Virus record (IMG/VR): IMGVR_UViG_3300037722_000745
Location: 160,001 to 224,000 of that record
DNA from: a virus
Lineage: Duplodnaviria > Caudoviricetes
Reading direction: 5' to 3' (one strand)
Length of the DNA stretch: 64,000 bases
The notes beneath the pieces were generated by a model that saw only the letters and a program-made list of their open reading frames with translations, searched no databases and had not been told where the DNA came from. Positions 34,546 through 62,708 of the stretch are shown piece by piece. The number at the start of each line of letters is the position of its first letter. Position 1 is the first letter of the stretch. The position numbers and the translations under genes were made by a program.

Positions 34546-34553
34546 AGTTGAGC

Positions 34554-34659
34554 GTCTCGCCGCAGCGAGCAATCAGGATCGATTCCCAGAGGGCGTCAGC
34601 GAGACGCAACTCGGGTCTTCTGGGTCTCGCCTCAGCGAGCAATCAGGATCGGTTGCCAA
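34554..34659 (-). CRISPR. Orphan Cas12j-type mini-array (repeat-34 nt spacer-repeat)
   Basis: 36-bp repeats at 34624-34659 (32/36 identical) and 34554-34589 (34/36 identical) to the main array repeat; hairpin CTCGC/GCGAG intact in both. Confidence 0.93.
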
Positions 34660-34670
34660 CACTGTTTGGC

Positions 34671-50045: not shown

Positions 50046-52038
<1,993 letters not shown>

Positions 52039-52045
<7 letters not shown>

Positions 52046-52148
52046 TCCCCACCGGCTACACATGGGCGACCAGCACGCCCGCGGAAGAGACGAACTCCGG
52101 GTGTGATGGTAGCACTGTGGCGAGTCATGTCCAGCACTCCCCACGCCC
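52039..52148 (-). CRISPR. Left part of degenerate type I-E-like repeat cluster
   Basis: Half repeat 52131-52148 (interrupted by the insertion), a 7-bp-deleted repeat 52070-52092 and a partial repeat 52039-52052. Confidence 0.6.
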
Positions 52149-52213
52149 GGGTAGTGGGGTGAATCGGATTCCGCCCACCCGGCCGGCCCCCTCCGGCCCT
52201 ACGCTGTGGTCCG

Positions 52214-52558
52214 ATGGGCATTCTACGCGAACGCGTGGTCCGCGGCAGGACCCGCCAAGACCGCGAGCCGCGCGGCTTCCAGCTCACCTCAACCGAGGCC
52301 GCCAACGTCAAGGTTGCCCTGCTCCATTTGCGGGCCCAGCACGGGTGCTGGCGCGAGGTGGCCCGCGTCATGGGTTGCACGAAGAGGGCCCTGGAGAAGG
52401 CCGCAGAGACCCGGCGGCGACCGTCCCCGGGCTTGGCGCTCCACGTGGCCCGAGCGCTGGGCTTGCCCGTGGAGGCGATGCTCACCGGGGCGCGGTCGGA
52501 GCCAGGGAGCTGCCCGATGTGTGGGCGGGCGAGTAGCAGGGCTCAACTGTCTAGGTAG
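52214..52558 (+). CDS. XRE-type HTH protein with C-terminal CPMC
   Basis: WREVARVMGCTKRALEKA...PSPGLALHVARALGLPVEAML. Confidence 0.7.
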   Translation: MGILRERVVRGRTRQDREPRGFQLTSTEAANVKVALLHLRAQHGCWREVARVMGCTKRALEKAAETRRRPSPGLALHVARALGLPVEAMLTGARSEPGSCPMCGRASSRAQLSR

Positions 52559-52819
52559 CGATGGAAGTTGCTCGGATGAATGTAGAGCCTAGCCAGCCAT
52601 GACCTGAGCACGCTCGGCATGATTCTCGTGTCGTCGTCCTCTTCGATCGGCAACACGAGTTTGATCTCCTCGTACTGTCTGTCTGTGGAGATCTCTCACA
52701 ACGCACTCCTCGCCGTTGATCATGCGCGTTGCAGACGTGACGGTCACGCCGTGCTCACGGCACACTTTCTCGACGAACTCCCGGACCGTAATCGACGGCC
52801 CGAATGGGAATGCAGGCAT
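52543..52819 (-). pseudogene. Frameshifted HicA-like toxin
   Basis: (ACAG)3 tract at 52675-52686; removing one unit joins MPAF..DLHRQ to YEEIKLVLP..PSVLRSWLARLYI, giving a 90 aa protein downstream of the HicB-like gene. Confidence 0.55.
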
Positions 52820-52830
52820 GACGGCCTATT

Positions 52831-53178
52831 CTAGGCCGATAGTCTCAATTTGCTAGCCGTTGCGTGGATGATCCACGGCGGCGGAACATCGGGTGCCACG
52901 GTTGGCCCCAGCAAATCCACGGCGCCGCCCAATGGGCGAGCCTCCCTGAACTTCTCAAAATAGTGGCTGGGTGCTCTCGGGACGTCTTGCATTGGGTCCT
53001 TGCCCAGCTCGATATTGGCAGCCGCTTGGTTGACAAATGCGCGCTGCCAAGATGCAAGCACGGCGTCCAAAGAAGTTCCCTGTGCCGCGACATCAAACTC
53101 TAGACACTGAGCAACCCACGTGCCTTCTTCAAGAAGGATGACAATGCTCAAGTCCTCAAACTTCCAGCTCTTTTGCAT
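52831..53178 (-). CDS. HicB-like antitoxin
   Basis: IVILLEEGTWVAQCLEFDVAAQGTSLDAV, the HicB N-terminal partial RNase H pattern. Confidence 0.7.
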   Translation of the reverse strand: MQKSWKFEDLSIVILLEEGTWVAQCLEFDVAAQGTSLDAVLASWQRAFVNQAAANIELGKDPMQDVPRAPSHYFEKFREARPLGGAVDLLGPTVAPDVPPPWIIHATASKLRLSA

Positions 53179-53356
53179 AGTCGCGCGGTTTTCTTGACAA
53201 GAGCGAGAGCGTTCGCCCTAGTGCGTCTGTAATAGTAGGGGCCACGGCGCTCAGCGGCAAGCGCCGCTAGCATGCCGAGACCGTATGCGCAAACCATGCA
53301 CAGCCGCAAAATAAGCGAAAAAGCGCGTGCCCCTGAACATTCTGCGAGTTCTAAGG

Positions 53357-53551
53357 CTAGCTTGTCGCTCGCTCCAAAAGCACCGATCTCGCCCACTGGG
53401 TTACGGGCTGTCCCGCCCTCGCGGCGGCTTCCGTGATAGCCGCCCGCTCTCCGTCGCTCAGCCTGATCGCGAAGACCGACTTCGCAGCGCCCTTCGGCAA
53501 CGGCGGCCTGCCGATCCTCGCCTTGGGCGGTGACCCAGAGTCAACATTTGT
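53357..53551 (-). CDS. Small ribbon-helix-helix protein (not in ORF track)
   Basis: Hand translation GRPPLPKGAAKSVFAIRLSDGERAAITEAAARAGQPVTQWARSVLLERATS*; start uncertain (in-frame TTG at 53500). Confidence 0.6.
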   Translation of the reverse strand, partial: TNVDSGSPPKARIGRPPLPKGAAKSVFAIRLSDGERAAITEAAARAGQPVTQWARSVLLERATS

Positions 53552-53597
53552 TTAGAGTGTTGTCTAAATTTAGCCCTCGTGGTAATCGACTCTTGGT

Positions 53598-54827
53598 ATG
53601 ACGCCTCCCGGGTTTTCTAATCCTTTCCGTCCTGGGGCAGGTCACCAGCCTCCTTACCTGGCTGGTCGGTCGCGGGAAACTAATGAATTCAAAATCTTAC
53701 TGGATCAGGACGTGATTCTGAACAGTCTGGTCCTGACGGGGCTTCGGGGGACCGGAAAGACAGTCCTGCTAGATACCTTCAAGCCTATCGCGATCTCCTC
53801 AAAGTGGGTGTGGGTGGGAGCGGACCTCTCTGAGTCGACTAGCATCAGTGAAGAACGGATTGTGAAGAGGCTTCTAGCTGACCTCGCGATCGTCACCGCT
53901 AGCATCCAGATCAGCGAACACCAGCGCAAGCAGATCGGCTTCGGTGCTGGCACGACAACGGTCCCAATCTGTCTCGACTATTCCGCGCTTGATGCGGTGT
54001 ACAAGGCCACTCCAGGATTGCCTGCCGATAAGCTGAAAGCCGTACTGCAGCTGGCGTGGTCAGCTCTCAAGCCGCTAGGACACCGAGGGATCGTCTTCGC
54101 CTACGATGAGGCGCAGAACCTCTCAGACCATGCTGCGAAAGAGGAGTTTCCACTGTCGCTCCTCCTCGACGTATTCCAGTCGCTTCAGAAGCATCAGCTC
54201 CCATTCCTGCTTACCCTGGTTGGGCTACCAACCTTGTTTCCGAAGTTGGTGGAGGCGCGCACTTTCGCCGAGCGCATGTTCCGGGTTGTCTTTCTCGACA
54301 GGCTTGGGCGCCAGGATTGTAGGGACGCCATCCTGAAACCAGTCCAAGACGCTCAATGCCCCATCCAACTCGACGACCCGTCCGCCGAACACATCATAGA
54401 CATTTCCGGCTGCTACCCGTACTTCATCCAGTTCATCTGCCGAGAAGTCTATGACGCGTTCCTGCAAGGGCAGACACGGGTACCTGTTGACGAGATAACG
54501 CGAAAGCTCGACAGCGACTTCTTCGCCGGTAGGTGGTCGCGCGTCACCGACAGACAACGCGAGCTTCTCAAAGTAGTAGCCTCTCTGGAAAGCTCCGACG
54601 GCGAATTCATGGTGCAGGAGATCGCAGAGAAATCGAAAGAGCTGACTAAACCATTCAGTCCAAGCCACATCAACCAGATGCTAGTCACTCTCGCGAACAA
54701 CGGCATGATCAACAAGAACAGGCACGGGAAGTACTCCTTCGCAGTGCCTCTTCTTGGCCGCTTCATTCTGCGGCAGGCAACCGCTGACAGAGAGGAGGAC
54801 CCTGGAGGGCAACAGCTGCTCTTCTAG
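53598..54827 (+). CDS. AAA+/STAND-like ATPase with C-terminal winged helix
   Basis: NPFRPGAG..PPYLAGR, GLRGTGKT, Walker B YDEAQ, GYP-like CYPYFIQ, wHTH tail. Confidence 0.82.
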   Translation: MTPPGFSNPFRPGAGHQPPYLAGRSRETNEFKILLDQDVILNSLVLTGLRGTGKTVLLDTFKPIAISSKWVWVGADLSESTSISEERIVKRLLADLAIVTASIQISEHQRKQIGFGAGTTTVPICLDYSALDAVYKATPGLPADKLKAVLQLAWSALKPLGHRGIVFAYDEAQNLSDHAAKEEFPLSLLLDVFQSLQKHQLPFLLTLVGLPTLFPKLVEARTFAERMFRVVFLDRLGRQDCRDAILKPVQDAQCPIQLDDPSAEHIIDISGCYPYFIQFICREVYDAFLQGQTRVPVDEITRKLDSDFFAGRWSRVTDRQRELLKVVASLESSDGEFMVQEIAEKSKELTKPFSPSHINQMLVTLANNGMINKNRHGKYSFAVPLLGRFILRQATADREEDPGGQQLLF

Positions 54828-54852
54828 CCAGGAGCTACGGAATTGAAAGACT

Positions 54853-54949
54853 GGAGGGTGACCCGCGGTTGGACCGCTCAAGGGCTCTACATCCTGATCG
54901 GGCCCGGTGTTGCAGCTCCGGTGGGGTTCGAATCCCTCACCCTCCGCCA
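54853..54949 (+). tRNA. Non-canonical (9/3 or 8/4, allo-tRNA-like) tRNA, anticodon CUA, long variable arm
   Basis: GGAGGGTGA/TCACCCTCC acceptor helix, G discriminator plus CCA, T-loop TTCGAAT, D hairpin GCGG..CCGC, anticodon loop CT-CTA-CA (54885-54891). Confidence 0.7.
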
Positions 54950-55257
54950 CCATGATGCGTCTTGCTGCTGGCGTCCGCAAGGATGCTCGCCCGGACCGCC
55001 TCCGCAGCCCCCGTGACGGGCCCCAGCCCCAGCACCGCGAAGAACCGGCGCTTGGTGCCCGTGGTGGCCTCGCTCCACGCGTAGGCCCGGCGCGCCTTGG
55101 GGTGCCCGTCCAGCTCGAACACCTCGACGTCTCCCTCCCAGGCTGTCTCCCCCGTGGGGGCGCGCTCGACTACATGCACAGTCTCGACGTGGCGCGCGGC
55201 GCAGCCGTGAAGGTGCTTGATGGCTTCGAGCAAGGCGTCGGTTCCGGCGGGGTCCAT
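54937..55257 (-). CDS. Conserved-looking hypothetical protein, convergent with the tRNA
   Basis: HGC.A.HVETV..WEGDVEVFELDGHP.A.RAYAWS..RFFAVL; TAGGCT -10 lies 6 nt before the ATG (leaderless). Confidence 0.7.
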   Translation of the reverse strand: MDPAGTDALLEAIKHLHGCAARHVETVHVVERAPTGETAWEGDVEVFELDGHPKARRAYAWSEATTGTKRRFFAVLGLGPVTGAAEAVRASILADASSKTHHGGGG

Positions 55258-55324
55258 GCCGGAAGCCTAACCCGCCCGGCGGCCGTGCCAAGATCGGGGC
55301 GCCGATCAAATCACCCCACTACCC

Positions 55325-55403
55325 ACGCCCGCGGAAGAGACGCCTGAGAGCCCAGTTCCTTCACCTGCGCGGTCCAGCACTCCCCACGCCCGCGGAAGAG
55401 ACG
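55325..55403 (-). CRISPR. Right part of type I-E-like repeat cluster (intact repeat, spacer, half repeat; 61-bp period)
   Basis: Minus-strand repeat GTCTCTTCCGCGGGCGTGGGGAGTGCTGG (29 nt; stem-loop followed by an 8-nt handle); repeat ends at 55342 and 55403 are 61 bp apart. Confidence 0.7.
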
Positions 55404-55849
55404 TTGTCTTGCAGCCTCGCCTCGCAGGCTGCTCTGTACACAGCCACGTCTGCTTCCAGCCTATCGAAGCCTGCGTCCGCAACTTTCGCGAGCCATGGAT
55501 ACGTTCGTAGCAGGCGAAGAAACGCGAGCGCCGCACCCGACTCCTCTCCGCGCTTCCACCTTGCGATGGTGCGTGACGGAAGTTGAAACACGCGCTCAAT
55601 ATAGGCGTTGCTGAGCCCACAGGCATCAAGGTAGACCAGCATCGTTGGTATCGATGCCTTCTTTGAGCTATCCAGCGCTTCTTCAATCCTCGAATCGTTT
55701 ACGTCGGCGAAATCACCGCTTTCTCCGCACATTCGGCACCTCAGCTGCTGCATCTTCCACGAAACGGAAGGGCCATATGGGACAGCGATGTTCTCGCATC
55801 GATCGATCGGTTCGAGTTGGGTAGAACCGCATGCTGGGCACTGAGTCAT
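55361..55849 (-). CDS. MqsA-like antitoxin (Zn-finger + HTH), no cognate toxin seen
   Basis: CPACG...CRMCGE, then AYIERVFQLPSRTIARWKRG..AALAFLRLL; the last codons read through the I-E-like repeat. Confidence 0.75.
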   Translation of the reverse strand: MTQCPACGSTQLEPIDRCENIAVPYGPSVSWKMQQLRCRMCGESGDFADVNDSRIEEALDSSKKASIPTMLVYLDACGLSNAYIERVFQLPSRTIARWKRGEESGAALAFLRLLRTYPWLAKVADAGFDRLEADVAVYRAACEARLQDNVSSAGVGSAGPRR

Positions 55850-55859
55850 AGCTTCTTCC

Positions 55860-55913
55860 CTCCTGCTCAGGCGTCGGGTAGAGCCGGTATTTGTAATTCC
55901 GCCGGAGGTCCAC
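55860..55913 (-). pseudogene. tnpB: TnpB N-terminal stub (IS200/IS605 OrfB)
   Basis: MDLRRNYKYRLYPTPEQE matches the YKYRLYPT.EQ start of TnpB; the rest is absent. Confidence 0.65.
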
Positions 55914-55922
55914 TCCGAGGCC

Positions 55923-55930
55923 CTACACCA
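55923..55930 (-). promoter_or_regulatory. GGTGTAG motif 9 nt upstream of tnpB-stub GTG
   Basis: TGACTGGTGTAGGGCCTCGGAGTG; 21/24 identical to the sequence before cas12j. Confidence 0.55.
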
Positions 55931-55971
55931 GTCAAGCGCGAGCTTTGCCCTTTAGCCGTGGAATTGTGGCA

Positions 55972-57644: not shown

Positions 57645-57704
57645 ACCGTCTCAGATTGACAGGGTCGGGTGGCCGTCTTCGAGCCACACTGGTTACGTTA
57701 CCGC

Positions 57705-58179
57705 GTCTCGCCGCAGCGAGCAATCAGGATCGGTCCCCAGCGGCTGATTCCTGCCGGAGGCAGTCACGCCTACTCCGCGTCTCGCCGCAGCGAGCAATCA
57801 GGATCGGTCCCCAGCTGATCATCACGATTCAGCTGCCGGCATCCGCTTCAAGTCTCGCCGCAGCGAGCAATCAGGATCGGTCCCCAGGACGTCCTCGAGA
57901 TCAACGGCAACGAGTACGACGCGAGGTCTCGCCGCAGCGAGCAATCAGGATCGGTCCCCAGCTACGGCGTCCGACGTGATGAGCGTGGCCGCGAGAACGT
58001 CTCGCCGCAGCGAGCAATCAGGATCGGTCCCCAGCAGCGTGCGAGCTGCGGATCGGTGGCTGCAGCCTTGTGTCTCGCCGCAGCGAGCAATCAGGATCGG
58101 TCCCCAGCTGCAAAAACTGGACTTCGCGTTATATGCCGTCCTCGTCTCGCCGCAGCGAGCAATCAGGATCGGTCCCCAG
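57705..58179 (-). CRISPR. Cas12j CRISPR array: 7 identical 36-bp repeats, 6 spacers (36-38 bp)
   Basis: Repeat CTGGGGACCGATCCTGATTGCTCGCTGCGGCGAGAC at + starts 57705, 57779, 57852, 57926, 57999, 58072, 58144; the ATTG-hairpin-AC 3' end is typical of CasPhi repeats. Confidence 0.98.
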
Positions 58180-61294: not shown

Positions 61295-61720
61295 GTGGCA
61301 GTGTCGCGAGAAGAAAGCCGGCGGCGTTATAACCAATCCCCAAAAGGGCGAGCTAACGCCAGCCGCCACGCAAAGAGCCCCAAGGCAAAAGCGAGGCGCC
61401 AGAAATGGATGCGGACGCCCAAGGGCAAGGCAGTTCAACGTCAGTACAAGGAACGTCGCCGGGCCTGGATGCAGGCAGAAAAACTTCGCCGTGGTTGTAT
61501 TGACTGCGGCTACAACAAGCATCCCGCAGCACTCGACTTCGATCACATTGTCGGGGAGAAAAAATTCGCCCTATCGAAGGTGTCGCGAAGCCTAGAGGCC
61601 CTCAAAGATGAGATTGCCAAGTGTGTAGTTCGCTGCTCGAACTGCCACCGCATCCGAACTTTCGAGATCCGGCAGTCCGCAGTGGACAAACGCACCCTAC
61701 GCATGGAGAAGGACGCAGCT
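61295..61720 (+). CDS. HNH endonuclease, in frame with the downstream vWA gene
   Basis: CIDCG..ALDFDH...CVVRCSNCHRIRT; no stop before vWA ATG 61721. Confidence 0.75.
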
Positions 61721-62708
61721 ATGTCAAGTACCGCCTACACACTCAGCAGAGATCTATTTCTAATCAAGCAGGTTCTGAGCCAGAACACCCCACCAACCGC
61801 TGCCGTCGAAACGGCAATCAATCATCTCGTTGTGATTGATTGCAGCGGCAGCATGTCCTGGGATCTGCCGAAGATCCGCGAGCAACTCAAACGCAAAGTT
61901 CCGAAACTACTGAAGGAGCAGGACACCATCTCGATCATCTGGTTCAGCGGCCGGCGGCAATTCGGGACGCTGTTGGAAGCCGAGCCCGTCGCAACGCTGG
62001 TCGACCTCCAGGATGTTGAGAGAGCCATCGATCGCTGGCTCAAGCCCGTGGGGCTCACCGGATTCAGGGAACCCCTCGAAGAGGCCGCCAAGGTCGTCGA
62101 GCGCGTGTCCAAGGCTCGCAAGGGTTCGGTCGCCTCTTTGTTCTTCATGTCCGACGGCTGTGACAACCAGTGGGACCGGGCCGAGATCCTCAAGGCCACC
62201 GAGACAGCCGCTGGAGGGTTCGCTTCCACAACTTTCGTCGAGTACGGCTACTACGCCGACCGGCCCCTGCTCACCGCCATGGCCGAGAAGTCGGGCCACG
62301 GACTTCTACATGGGCAAGGAACTGAAGGTCAACCTCAAAGGGTTGTCTTCGCTGCCGAGCCTCAACGATGTCCGCAAGCAACGCGACAAGGGTAAGTTCA
62401 ACGCAGGCGGCGAACTCATGAAGCCCGTGTTGGAATTGGTCGAGAGCTTCCTCGACAGCGATGCTTACAAGCAGGCCGCGGACAAGGACGCCGTCCTGAA
62501 GGCGTGGCTCGAAGGGCAGACCAAAGCCGCCAAAGCCAAGACCCGCGAGCACCTCTACAAGATGGCCGAAGTCTCGTTCGCCCTCATCGTCGGTCAGACG
62601 TGGTTCAGCGAGTTTAACTCTCTCGATGAGAACTCGCTTACCATCACGGTCGATGGTAAGGACATCCCATGCAAGGCCGAGATGCGTGAGATCGAGGTCA
62701 AGATCTAG
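61721..62708 (+). pseudogene. vWA-domain gene with internal deletion/frameshift
   Basis: MIDAS DCSGSMS, SDG; frame switches near 62293-62297 to a coherent C-terminus (TDFYMGKEL...WFSEFNSLDE...EIEVKI). Confidence 0.6.

Follow-up and report, generated by a model that had tools for sequence, protein, structure and literature searches.

A probable remnant of an imported CRISPR array, split by an IS1-family cargo transposon, in a CasPhi/Cas12j huge phage

We analysed a window of 64,000 nucleotides (positions 160,001 to 224,000 of the IMG/VR record IMGVR_UViG_3300037722_000745) from a CasPhi/Cas12j huge phage, whose genome also contains several further repeat families. The repeats described here are probably what is left of a class 1 CRISPR array, a leaderless and decaying fragment with type I-E-like dimensions that would have been imported into the phage genome and broken by a transposon. 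In its present form, the fragment most likely has no function; given a matching Cas6 or Cascade in the host, it could at most supply a single guide with spacer 1, or a repeat that serves as a decoy.

Anatomy of the repeats

Across the 323-kb record, the 29-nt repeat R (GTCTCTTCCGCGGGCGTGGGGAGTGCTGG on the minus strand) has one full copy, repeat 1 (R1), located at 55374-55402 on the minus strand and reading CCAGCACTCCCCACGCCCGCGGAAGAGAC on the plus strand. The match is exact, its coordinates and frame were checked, and the 29-mer was absent from 100 shuffles (chance expectation, 0). A copy with four mismatches lies 61 bp to the left of R1, at 55313-55341, and the two are separated by the 32-nt spacer 1 (55342-55373, minus strand; ACCGCGCAGGTGAAGGAACTGGGCTCTCAGGC). 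These observations bear out the 29-nt repeat and the 61-bp period of the original prediction, which had been made from the letters of the window.

The original prediction had also placed degenerate copies at 52039-52148. Partial copies are indeed present there, but it had gone unnoticed that one of them, at 52131-52149, is half of a repeat split by a transposon. This 19-nt segment (the first 19 nt of R; 3' part on the minus strand) and the 18-nt segment at 55324-55341 (5' part on the minus strand) are the two halves of a single repeat, R2, parted by an insertion of 3174 bp. The 8-bp target duplication CACGCCCG is present once in each half, at 52142-52149 and 55324-55331, respectively. When the insertion and one copy of the duplication were removed in silico, 52131-52149 joined to 55332-55341 gave R at 29 of 29 positions, and the start-to-start distances from R3' (described below) to R2 and from R2 to R1 were both exactly 61 bp. 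In its present state, R2 retains the first 25 nt of R with a single change (G21 to U). A guide carrying spacer 1 could still be cut out because these 25 nt differ from R at that position only.

Beyond R2 lie, all on the minus strand, spacer 2 (52092-52130), which has an atypical length of 39 nt, a decayed repeat 3 (R3'; 52070-52091), in which positions 8-14 of R (plus-strand numbering) are missing, and a terminal stub (R4'; 52039-52052) consisting of the first 14 nt of the plus-strand form. Direct repeats with sharp boundaries, unique spacers, and a constant period, as in CRISPR arrays generally, were found, with R1 and the rebuilt R2 identical at 29 of 29 positions and R3' and R4' partial. 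The edges are sharp in all copies, and the spacers are unrelated to one another. The repeat-spacer structure is thus of the CRISPR type, as had been proposed, and its family is distinct from the Cas12j repeats of the phage.

It is highly improbable that the copies are instead a REP- or MITE-type palindrome, recombination sites, or duplicated transposon target sites. Such an origin would agree with the small number of copies (four, one of them intact), with the absence of cas genes, and with the core of R, a G+C-rich imperfect palindrome such as many genomes contain by chance in the form of isolated hairpins. Against it, the copies are direct rather than inverted and have two exact 61-bp periods and unrelated spacers, and they are confined to a single locus of the 323-kb record. 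Besides, the transposon duplicated 8 bp and not 29. The original prediction had named a REP or MITE family as the reading opposed to CRISPR; in the scans described below, the pattern was never multi-copy in the 75 metagenome loci, 2 genome loci, and 401 genomes inspected, contrary to what a REP or MITE would show.

The transposon in repeat 2

The insertion in R2 (52150-55323) is a cargo transposon of the IS1 family that lacks its transposase, as indicated by its inverted ends, its 8-bp duplication, and its relatives. Perfect 13-bp inverted ends (GGTAGTGGGGTGA) are located at 52150-52162 and 55311-55323. Ends of the form GGnnnTG are a stated hallmark of IS1/IS6 (PMC6807381). The insert has both these ends and a duplication within the 8 to 9 bp of the IS1 family, but it encodes no IS1-type DDE transposase, and therefore it is a defective derivative and not an autonomous member. 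No homologue of the DDE transposase was detected by tblastn in the insert or in the whole 323-kb contig, implying that the insert could move only with help in trans.

Three autonomous relatives (L134, 4939-8905; L131, 9184-11788; L140, 56-4266) have ends of the form GG(T/C)A(G/C)TG...TTTGAA, which are homologous to those of the phage insert over about 25 bp, and 8-bp duplications of their own (CCCGCGGG, GCGGTCTG, and GAACGCCT). Their 280-aa DDE protein passes Pfam DDE_Tnp_IS1 with 27-31 bits (cut-off, 24.1). In the phage copy, the conserved first gene of the transposon family is retained (54937-55257, minus strand) and encodes a small protein of 106 aa with 572 homologues, up to 79% identical, some of which come from Polyangiaceae MAGs; in L131 and L134-L140 its homologue adjoins the 280-aa DDE gene. 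A remnant of a NikA-like (ribbon-helix-helix) gene with a cut 5' end (53366-53527, minus strand) shows 61% identity in tblastn to the NikA-like protein of L134, and the DDE gene expected ahead of it is missing. The place of the transposase gene is occupied by a tRNA-like gene and a gene for a 409-aa AAA_16 ATPase (53598-54827, plus strand; Pfam AAA_16, 37.6 bits). Homologues of the ATPase with 54-67% identity occur in 18 IMG/VR contigs, where the neighbouring genes are not found alongside.

The closest known kind is the passenger-carrying IS1-family transposons (ISMhu11-type subgroup in ISfinder), with which the insert shares GGTAGTG ends, an 8-bp duplication, a small first gene, and a NikA-like gene. 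Those relatives combine a DDE_Tnp_IS1 transposase with variable cargo, whereas the phage copy has lost the transposase gene; transposase-less mobile insertion cassettes are also named as a closest known kind. We rejected an integrase-driven element with an attP between the 106-aa and 114-aa genes, an idea that came from the gene order in L131, because L131, L134, and L140 proved to contain complete transposons, each with inverted ends and an 8-bp duplication, and because the 114-aa homologue is located outside the L131 element. A preference of the transposon for hairpin targets was likewise rejected, since the four target sites have only high G+C in common.

Fit to type I-E, and searches for machinery, host arrays, and targets

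The wobble stem-loop followed by 8 nt, as originally predicted, can be drawn for R (U6-G21, U7-G20, C8-G19, C9-G18, G10-U17, and C11-G16), three of the six pairs being G-U. But its stability did not stand out: the folding energy is no better than that of shuffled sequence (z = -0.2), though the stem pairs are in register.

The assignment to type I-E held for the dimensions and the layout. R has in common with type I-E arrays (E. coli type, processed by Cas6e) the 29-nt repeat, the 32-nt spacer, and the 61-bp period, as well as the 5+6+4+6+8 layout, in which a stem of 6 bp closed by a loop of 4 nt is preceded by 5 nt and followed by 8 nt, and a handle that begins with A and ends with G. The seven cas6e-linked arrays of the candidate host phylum (that of a Polyangiaceae MAG) have periods of 60-62 bp. 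The assignment failed for the handle and the overall sequence. The conserved handle of type I-E is AU[G/A]AACCG, and most handles in our comparison set, which comprised the E. coli repeat and seven repeats that lie at cas6e loci in the candidate host phylum, read AUGAACCG. The 8-nt handle of R (AGUGCUGG) agrees with those of the set at only 1 or 2 of 8 positions, and the identity of R to these repeats is 12-16 of 29 positions, versus 17-26 among the eight repeats themselves. This likeness is slightly above that of shuffles (33 of 2,000 reach it) and derives from the stem. For R, type I-E is supported only in part; half of its stem pairs are G-U, and no I-E cas genes were found on the contig.

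The original prediction had stated that the window holds no cognate cas genes, and this proved to be so for the 323-kb contig too, in which Pfam searches for Cas6e (PF08798), Cas7e (PF09344), and Cas1 (PF01867) were negative. Cas6e was also not found in five related phages. No candidate phage protein for processing or using R was found on the contig, which is about 68% complete by CheckV. The remainder of the genome could harbour the cognate cas genes.

Scans in line with two further checks proposed with the original prediction, a comparison of the repeat, which might also identify the host, and a target search with the spacers, gave neither an array nor a target. An exact 21-nt core of R had two single matches, both inside coding sequence, among the GTDB species representatives and none in IMG/VR. 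A degenerate 20-mer in which wobble pairs were allowed to be canonical gave 75 single matches in JGI metagenomes and 2 in IMG/VR, none of them exceeding 22 of 29 positions or having a neighbouring copy. A 29-mer pattern with three mismatches gave one single-copy match in 401 genomes of the candidate host phylum. None of these matches lay in an array; as the scans used exact patterns and a sample of 401 genomes, the cognate host system may simply be unsampled. For neither spacer was a protospacer found in the phage's own genome at up to 30% mismatch, in INPHARED by blastn (best E value of 0.3, at chance level), or in IMG/VR with every sixth base free.

In light of these results, a working phage mini-array appears unlikely. 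In such an array, pre-crRNA read through from rtcB and the MqsA-like gene would be cut by a host Cas6e-like enzyme at R1 and at the nearly intact hairpin of R2, and the host's Cascade would receive spacer 1 as a guide against a rival phage or plasmid. The intact R1, the canonical 32-nt length of spacer 1, and the first 25 nt of R2, kept but for one base, are consistent with this, and the wobble pairing and the decay of the distal repeats indicate an orientation that the genes around the array share. Type I-E is present in the candidate host phylum: of 81 genomes sampled, 10 encode Cas6e, among them the MAG with the related transposon. Mini-arrays borne by viruses are on record (Medvedeva et al. 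2019, PMC6858448), as are arrays of huge phages that make use of Cas proteins of the host (Al-Shayeb et al. 2020, PMC7162821); both resemble the locus in being short repeat-spacer-repeat units without their own cas genes. However, the repeats of those arrays are intact and often host-like, and their spacers match related viruses (PMC6858448; PMC7162821), whereas the phage fragment is leaderless, transposon-broken, and not common to relatives and has no detected target or host counterpart. The lack of a predicted promoter, a handle unlike those of I-E repeats, and a hairpin no more stable than shuffled sequence also argue against a working array.

Transcription, genomic setting, and significance

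R1 abuts, and is read through by, an open reading frame for an MqsA-like zinc-ribbon/HTH protein of 162 aa (55361-55849, minus strand), which was recognized from homologues and from NCBIfam TIGR03830 (E = 1.3e-5, under the cut-off). R1 corresponds to codons 150-159, and the last 13 codons (150-162) consist of R1 and spacer 1, in agreement with the predicted read-through of the intact repeat. Homology to relatives stops at about codon 150, and R1 appears to have supplanted the final codons of the gene. Since R1 starts at this codon, there is no leader for the array, and promoter prediction gave no site above chance near R1. No partner toxin gene for the MqsA-like gene was found at the locus, and the 127-aa partner gene upstream of its homologue in L131 has no counterpart in the phage. 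We rejected a derivation of R from the 3' end of the MqsA-like gene, as the protein resemblance (VSSAG/VDSAG) is not accompanied by DNA similarity to the L131 homologue.

R1 is sense-oriented with respect to a series of genes on the minus strand, namely rtcB, the MqsA-like gene, the small gene, and cpn60. Being intact and so placed inside a transcription unit, it is probably transcribed, as had been proposed. A single intact CRISPR-type repeat, away from cas genes and probably transcribed, recalls the solitary repeat units that act as RNA anti-CRISPRs (Racr; Camara-Wilpert et al. 2023, PMC10651486). The break in R2 effectively leaves R1 as a lone intact repeat, which on the 3' end of the MqsA-like mRNA would mimic a host repeat and soak up Cas6 and Cas7 into dead-end complexes, as solitary repeats of phages do against I-F, I-E, I-C, and V-A systems (PMC10651486). 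We consider this very unlikely. The published candidates were selected by likeness to a host repeat and by their own promoter within 250 bp (PMC10651486), but for R the scans described above found no array, and no promoter-like site was predicted near R1. The neighbours of R1, which are the MqsA-like gene, a TnpB stub, and transposon debris, do not make up an acr locus, and the locus is not conserved in relatives. Moreover, R1 is accompanied by decayed repeats and by spacers with a regular 61-bp period, which are expected of an array remnant and needless for a decoy.

The remnant of an imported array that we favour accords with the setting. The array and the transposon sit in an insert of about 3.9 kb that is absent from all 32 related huge-phage loci, none of which contains R, the MqsA-like gene, or the transposon. 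In 13 of the 32, rtcB is followed by the small gene and then by cpn60; the gap between rtcB and the small gene ranges from 20 bp to 3.6 kb, and the large gaps examined carry RNA-repair genes. Downstream lies the conserved small gene, for which the R4' stub probably provides the GTG start codon (52045) and whose homologues align only from about residue 38-42 of the ORF at 52144-51671. The G+C content is 67-70% in the array and 71% in the end genes of the transposon, versus 56% in the phage; together with the homologues in Polyangiaceae MAGs, this points to a foreign origin of the array.

We infer that a fragment with the minus-strand order R1, 32-nt spacer, R2, 39-nt spacer, decayed R3, and stub R4 reached the phage by horizontal transfer, its source being a bacterium of high G+C content or the mobile elements of one. 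It would have entered the genome at a variable slot that is flanked by rtcB and by the conserved small gene upstream of cpn60. The IS1-family cargo transposon would then have entered R2 by ordinary DDE transposition, duplicating 8 bp, and would afterwards have lost its transposase gene to the segment with the ATPase and tRNA-like genes.

The exploitation or inhibition of a host I-E system by the phage, as put forward in the original prediction, was not supported. There is no leader, one of the two whole repeats is split by the transposon, the distal repeats are decayed, the locus is absent from all relatives recovered, and neither a protospacer nor a host array was found in the collections searched; use of a host CRISPR system by the fragment is unsupported, though conceivable. 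It is quite unlikely that R1, spacer 1, and the near-intact hairpin of R2 are still excised and serve, as guide or decoy, some host class 1 system whose handle is non-canonical and which genome databases do not yet include. If this were true, the Cas12j phage would also plug into host Cascade, and a fragment shown to be processed would mean that the phage draws on both its own and host CRISPR machinery.

R is the fourth repeat family of the phage, in which Cas12j arrays, arrays of a type I-C variant, and another cas-less array were already known. The host lineage is weakly hinted at by the foreign G+C content and by a transposon of the Polyangiaceae type. On present evidence, the fragment is genomic debris and is not to be counted as functional counter-defence, and the locus cleanly illustrates the accumulation of cargo transposons and fragments of CRISPR arrays in a variable slot of a huge phage.

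Anatomy of the split mini-array

The 29-nt repeat R (CCAGCACTCCCCACGCCCGCGGAAGAGAC on the plus strand) is present as one intact copy, R1, at 55374 to 55402 (0 matches in 100 shuffles), to the left of which lie spacer 1 (32 nt; 55342 to 55373) and 18 nt of a second copy, R2 (55324 to 55341). The first 19 nt of R2 are found about 3.2 kb further left (52131 to 52149), followed by spacer 2 (39 nt; 52092 to 52130), a decayed copy, R3', that lacks positions 8 to 14 of R (52070 to 52091), and, beyond 17 unrelated bases, a last stub consisting of the first 14 nt of R (52039 to 52052). Every copy has sharp edges. The two parts of R2 are separated by a 3174-bp insert (52150 to 55323) flanked by a direct duplication, CACGCCCG (52142 to 52149 and 55324 to 55331). 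When the insert and one copy of the duplication were removed in silico, R was rebuilt at 29 of 29 positions, and the start-to-start distances from R3' to R2 and from R2 to R1 became exactly 61 bp each. The repeat and 61-bp period of the original prediction are thus present, and R2 is further shown to have been split by the insert.

A repeat scan of the whole 323-kb virus record (about 68% complete by CheckV estimate) confined the family of R to this one locus. We found no Cas6e, Cas7e, or Cas1 on the contig, which upholds the view of a cas-less mini-array of the CRISPR type. The record has at least three further families of such repeats: that of Cas12j, one with the ending ...ATTGAAAC (four loci), and one near 243.8 kb. 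The repeats of these other arrays include the ...GTAATTGAAAC ending of the four-locus family and a GTCCCACTCTTGATGGAGG... family; the arrays lie at 1 to 220, 61332 to 61863, 64594 to 65562, 120209 to 121160, and 243752 to 243972 of the record and at 34552 to 34660 and 57699 to 58142 of the window, which spans 160001 to 224000 of the record.

The start of R1 coincides exactly with codon 150 of an MqsA-like open reading frame, so that the final 13 residues of the protein, VSSAGVGSAGPRR, are repeat and spacer, and similarity to the nearest relative (56% identity, 158 aa) stops around the same codon. Besides, no promoter-like or terminator-like site scored above shuffles. This indicates that the array is a fragment fused to a truncated gene, without a control region of its own. 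The MqsA-like gene (55361 to 55849, minus strand) is solitary in the phage, whereas its closest relative (contigs L131 to L133; L131, 7602 to 8477) has directly upstream a 127-aa gene that presumably encodes the partner toxin; in the phage, the MqsA-like protein may serve as a regulator or an orphan antitoxin.

A cargo transposon inside R2

The insert starts with GGTAGTGGGGTGA, whose exact reverse complement forms the other end. At its right end is a 106-aa gene (54937 to 55257, minus strand), whose product has 572 homologues, some of them in Polyangiaceae MAGs. On other contigs, a gene of this type is followed by genes for a 280-aa protein and a small NikA-like protein. The 280-aa protein passed the cutoff (24.1) of Pfam DDE_Tnp_IS1 with 27 to 31 bits and nearly reached that of DDE_Tnp_IS240. 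Three complete relatives, each with an 8-bp duplication, have inverted ends homologous to those of the insert over about 25 bp: L134, 4939 to 8905 (ends GGCACTGTCC..., duplication CCCGCGGG); L131, 9184 to 11788 (ends GGTAGTGGCTGG..., duplication GCGGTCTG); and L140, 56 to 4266 (ends GGTAGTGGCCGG..., duplication GAACGCCT). GGnnnTG ends are a hallmark common to the IS1 and IS6 families (PMC6807381). The insert retains the 106-aa gene and a 5'-cut NikA-like remnant (53366 to 53527; 61% identity to that of L134), and an AAA_16 ATPase gene and a tRNA-like gene stand where the DDE gene should be. As judged from this replacement and from the lack of any DDE homologue in the 323 kb, the insert is a defective, passenger-carrying element of the IS1 family.

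The first gene of this large family of cargo-carrying IS1-type transposons, about 60 bp inside their left end, is constant and encodes a small protein (about 100 aa) that has no Pfam family (the 106-aa gene here; L131, 9248 to 9550; L134, 5001 to 5300; L138, 5001 to 5312). In the tRNA-shaped gene (54853 to 54952, plus strand), a 9-bp acceptor stem is combined with a long extra arm, a 3' CCA, and an anticodon loop, CUCUACA, with the amber-reading anticodon CUA. It was missed by ARAGORN and matched Rfam tRNA-Sec over the full length at 32.9 bits (E = 4.5e-5), short of the gathering score (47). At the 3' end, the gene overlaps the stop codon of the 106-aa gene.

Relation to type I-E repeats and prospects of function

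R is like type I-E repeats in its dimensions and in its minus-strand layout (5 nt, 6-bp stem, 4-nt loop, and 8 nt). Three stem pairs are G-U on the minus strand and would be C-A mismatches on the opposite strand; both these pairs and the decay of the left-end copies point to transcription of the array from the minus strand, as for the genes around it. The fold of R is no better than that of shuffles (z = -0.2). For comparison, Cas6e loci were drawn from the phylum of a Polyangiaceae MAG that bears a related transposon, and Cas6e was present in 10 of the 81 genomes sampled, that MAG included. The seven cas6e-linked arrays read have periods of 60 to 62 bp throughout, and their repeats and the E. 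coli repeat agree mutually at 17 to 26 of 29 positions. In contrast, R agrees with them at 12 to 16 of 29 positions, slightly more than shuffled sequences do (33 in 2000 attain this level), the stem being the source of the similarity, and its 8-nt handle, AGUGCUGG, agrees at only 1 or 2 of 8. The predicted type I-E assignment holds for architecture only; by these comparisons, R is I-E-like in shape but outside the I-E repeats sampled.

No protospacer for either spacer was found in the phage itself, INPHARED, or IMG/VR, and no array with the core of R in GTDB representatives, IMG/VR, or JGI metagenomes. The proposed exploitation or inhibition of a host I-E system by the phage finds no support here. 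A solitary decoy repeat of the RNA anti-CRISPR (Racr) type, as in PMC10651486, is very unlikely. Database matches to the core were single hairpins or coding sequence only, and a 3-mismatch pattern search of 401 candidate-phylum genomes gave one single-copy match; set beside the 61-bp spacing of the copies, a non-CRISPR repeat appears highly improbable. The intact R1 is probably transcribed. Besides, the transposon end GGTAGTG resembles GGGAGTG of the repeat, so the R2 junction retains R in its first 25 nt except for one base, and release of a spacer-1 guide would in principle still be feasible. That a single guide still works is nevertheless unlikely, given that neither a protospacer nor an array of this repeat was found in the collections searched.

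Genomic slot and probable foreign origin

Among 32 related huge-phage loci collected via RtcB (57 to 81% identity), the order rtcB, conserved small gene, and cpn60 was found in 13. Between rtcB and the small gene, the distance varies from 20 bp to 3.6 kb, and the large gaps examined contain RNA-repair genes, namely, those for Tpt1/KptA 2'-phosphotransferase, SpoU methylase, Rv2179c-like 3'-5' exoribonuclease, and AAA ATPase. Such genes fill a variable slot between rtcB and cpn60 in the related phages (L101, 11402 to 14560; L110, 11402 to 15090; L105, 11393 to 15035; L109, 11402 to 12940), which suggests that RtcB is the centre of an RNA repair module whose parts can be exchanged.

R, the MqsA-like gene, and the transposon proteins were absent from the related RtcB-found loci, and the five closest relatives, examined over their full records, have neither R (≤3 mismatches) nor Cas6e. 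Alignments of the small gene with its homologues set in only at residue 38-42 of the open reading frame (52144 to 51671), which places the real start at about 52045, inside the last stub. The gene appears to borrow a GTG start from the stub (GTGCTGG; 52037 to 52045, minus strand), and the imported fragment may thus have replaced its original start region. Judged from this start and from the related loci, which lack its contents, 52045 to 55971 is an insert specific to the phage, in which the array and the transposon are accompanied by the MqsA-like gene and a putative TnpB N-terminal stub. The start of a short open reading frame at 55860 to 55913 (minus strand; translation VDLRRNYKYRLYPTPEQEG), between rtcB and the MqsA-like gene, is the candidate TnpB/OrfB N terminus by resemblance, a further trace of mobile DNA in the slot. 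G+C content is 67 to 70% in the array and 71% in the transposon end genes versus 56% in the phage and flanking genes, which agrees with a foreign origin.

We consider it rather likely, as the best explanation, that an array fragment of foreign, high-G+C origin came into the phage, was struck by an IS1-family cargo transposon, and is decaying. Cargo transposons of the IS1 type are already known. Viruses with cas-less arrays and mini-arrays have also been documented (PMC7162821, PMC6858448). Thus, the locus belongs to known kinds, of which it adds a new example of modest significance.
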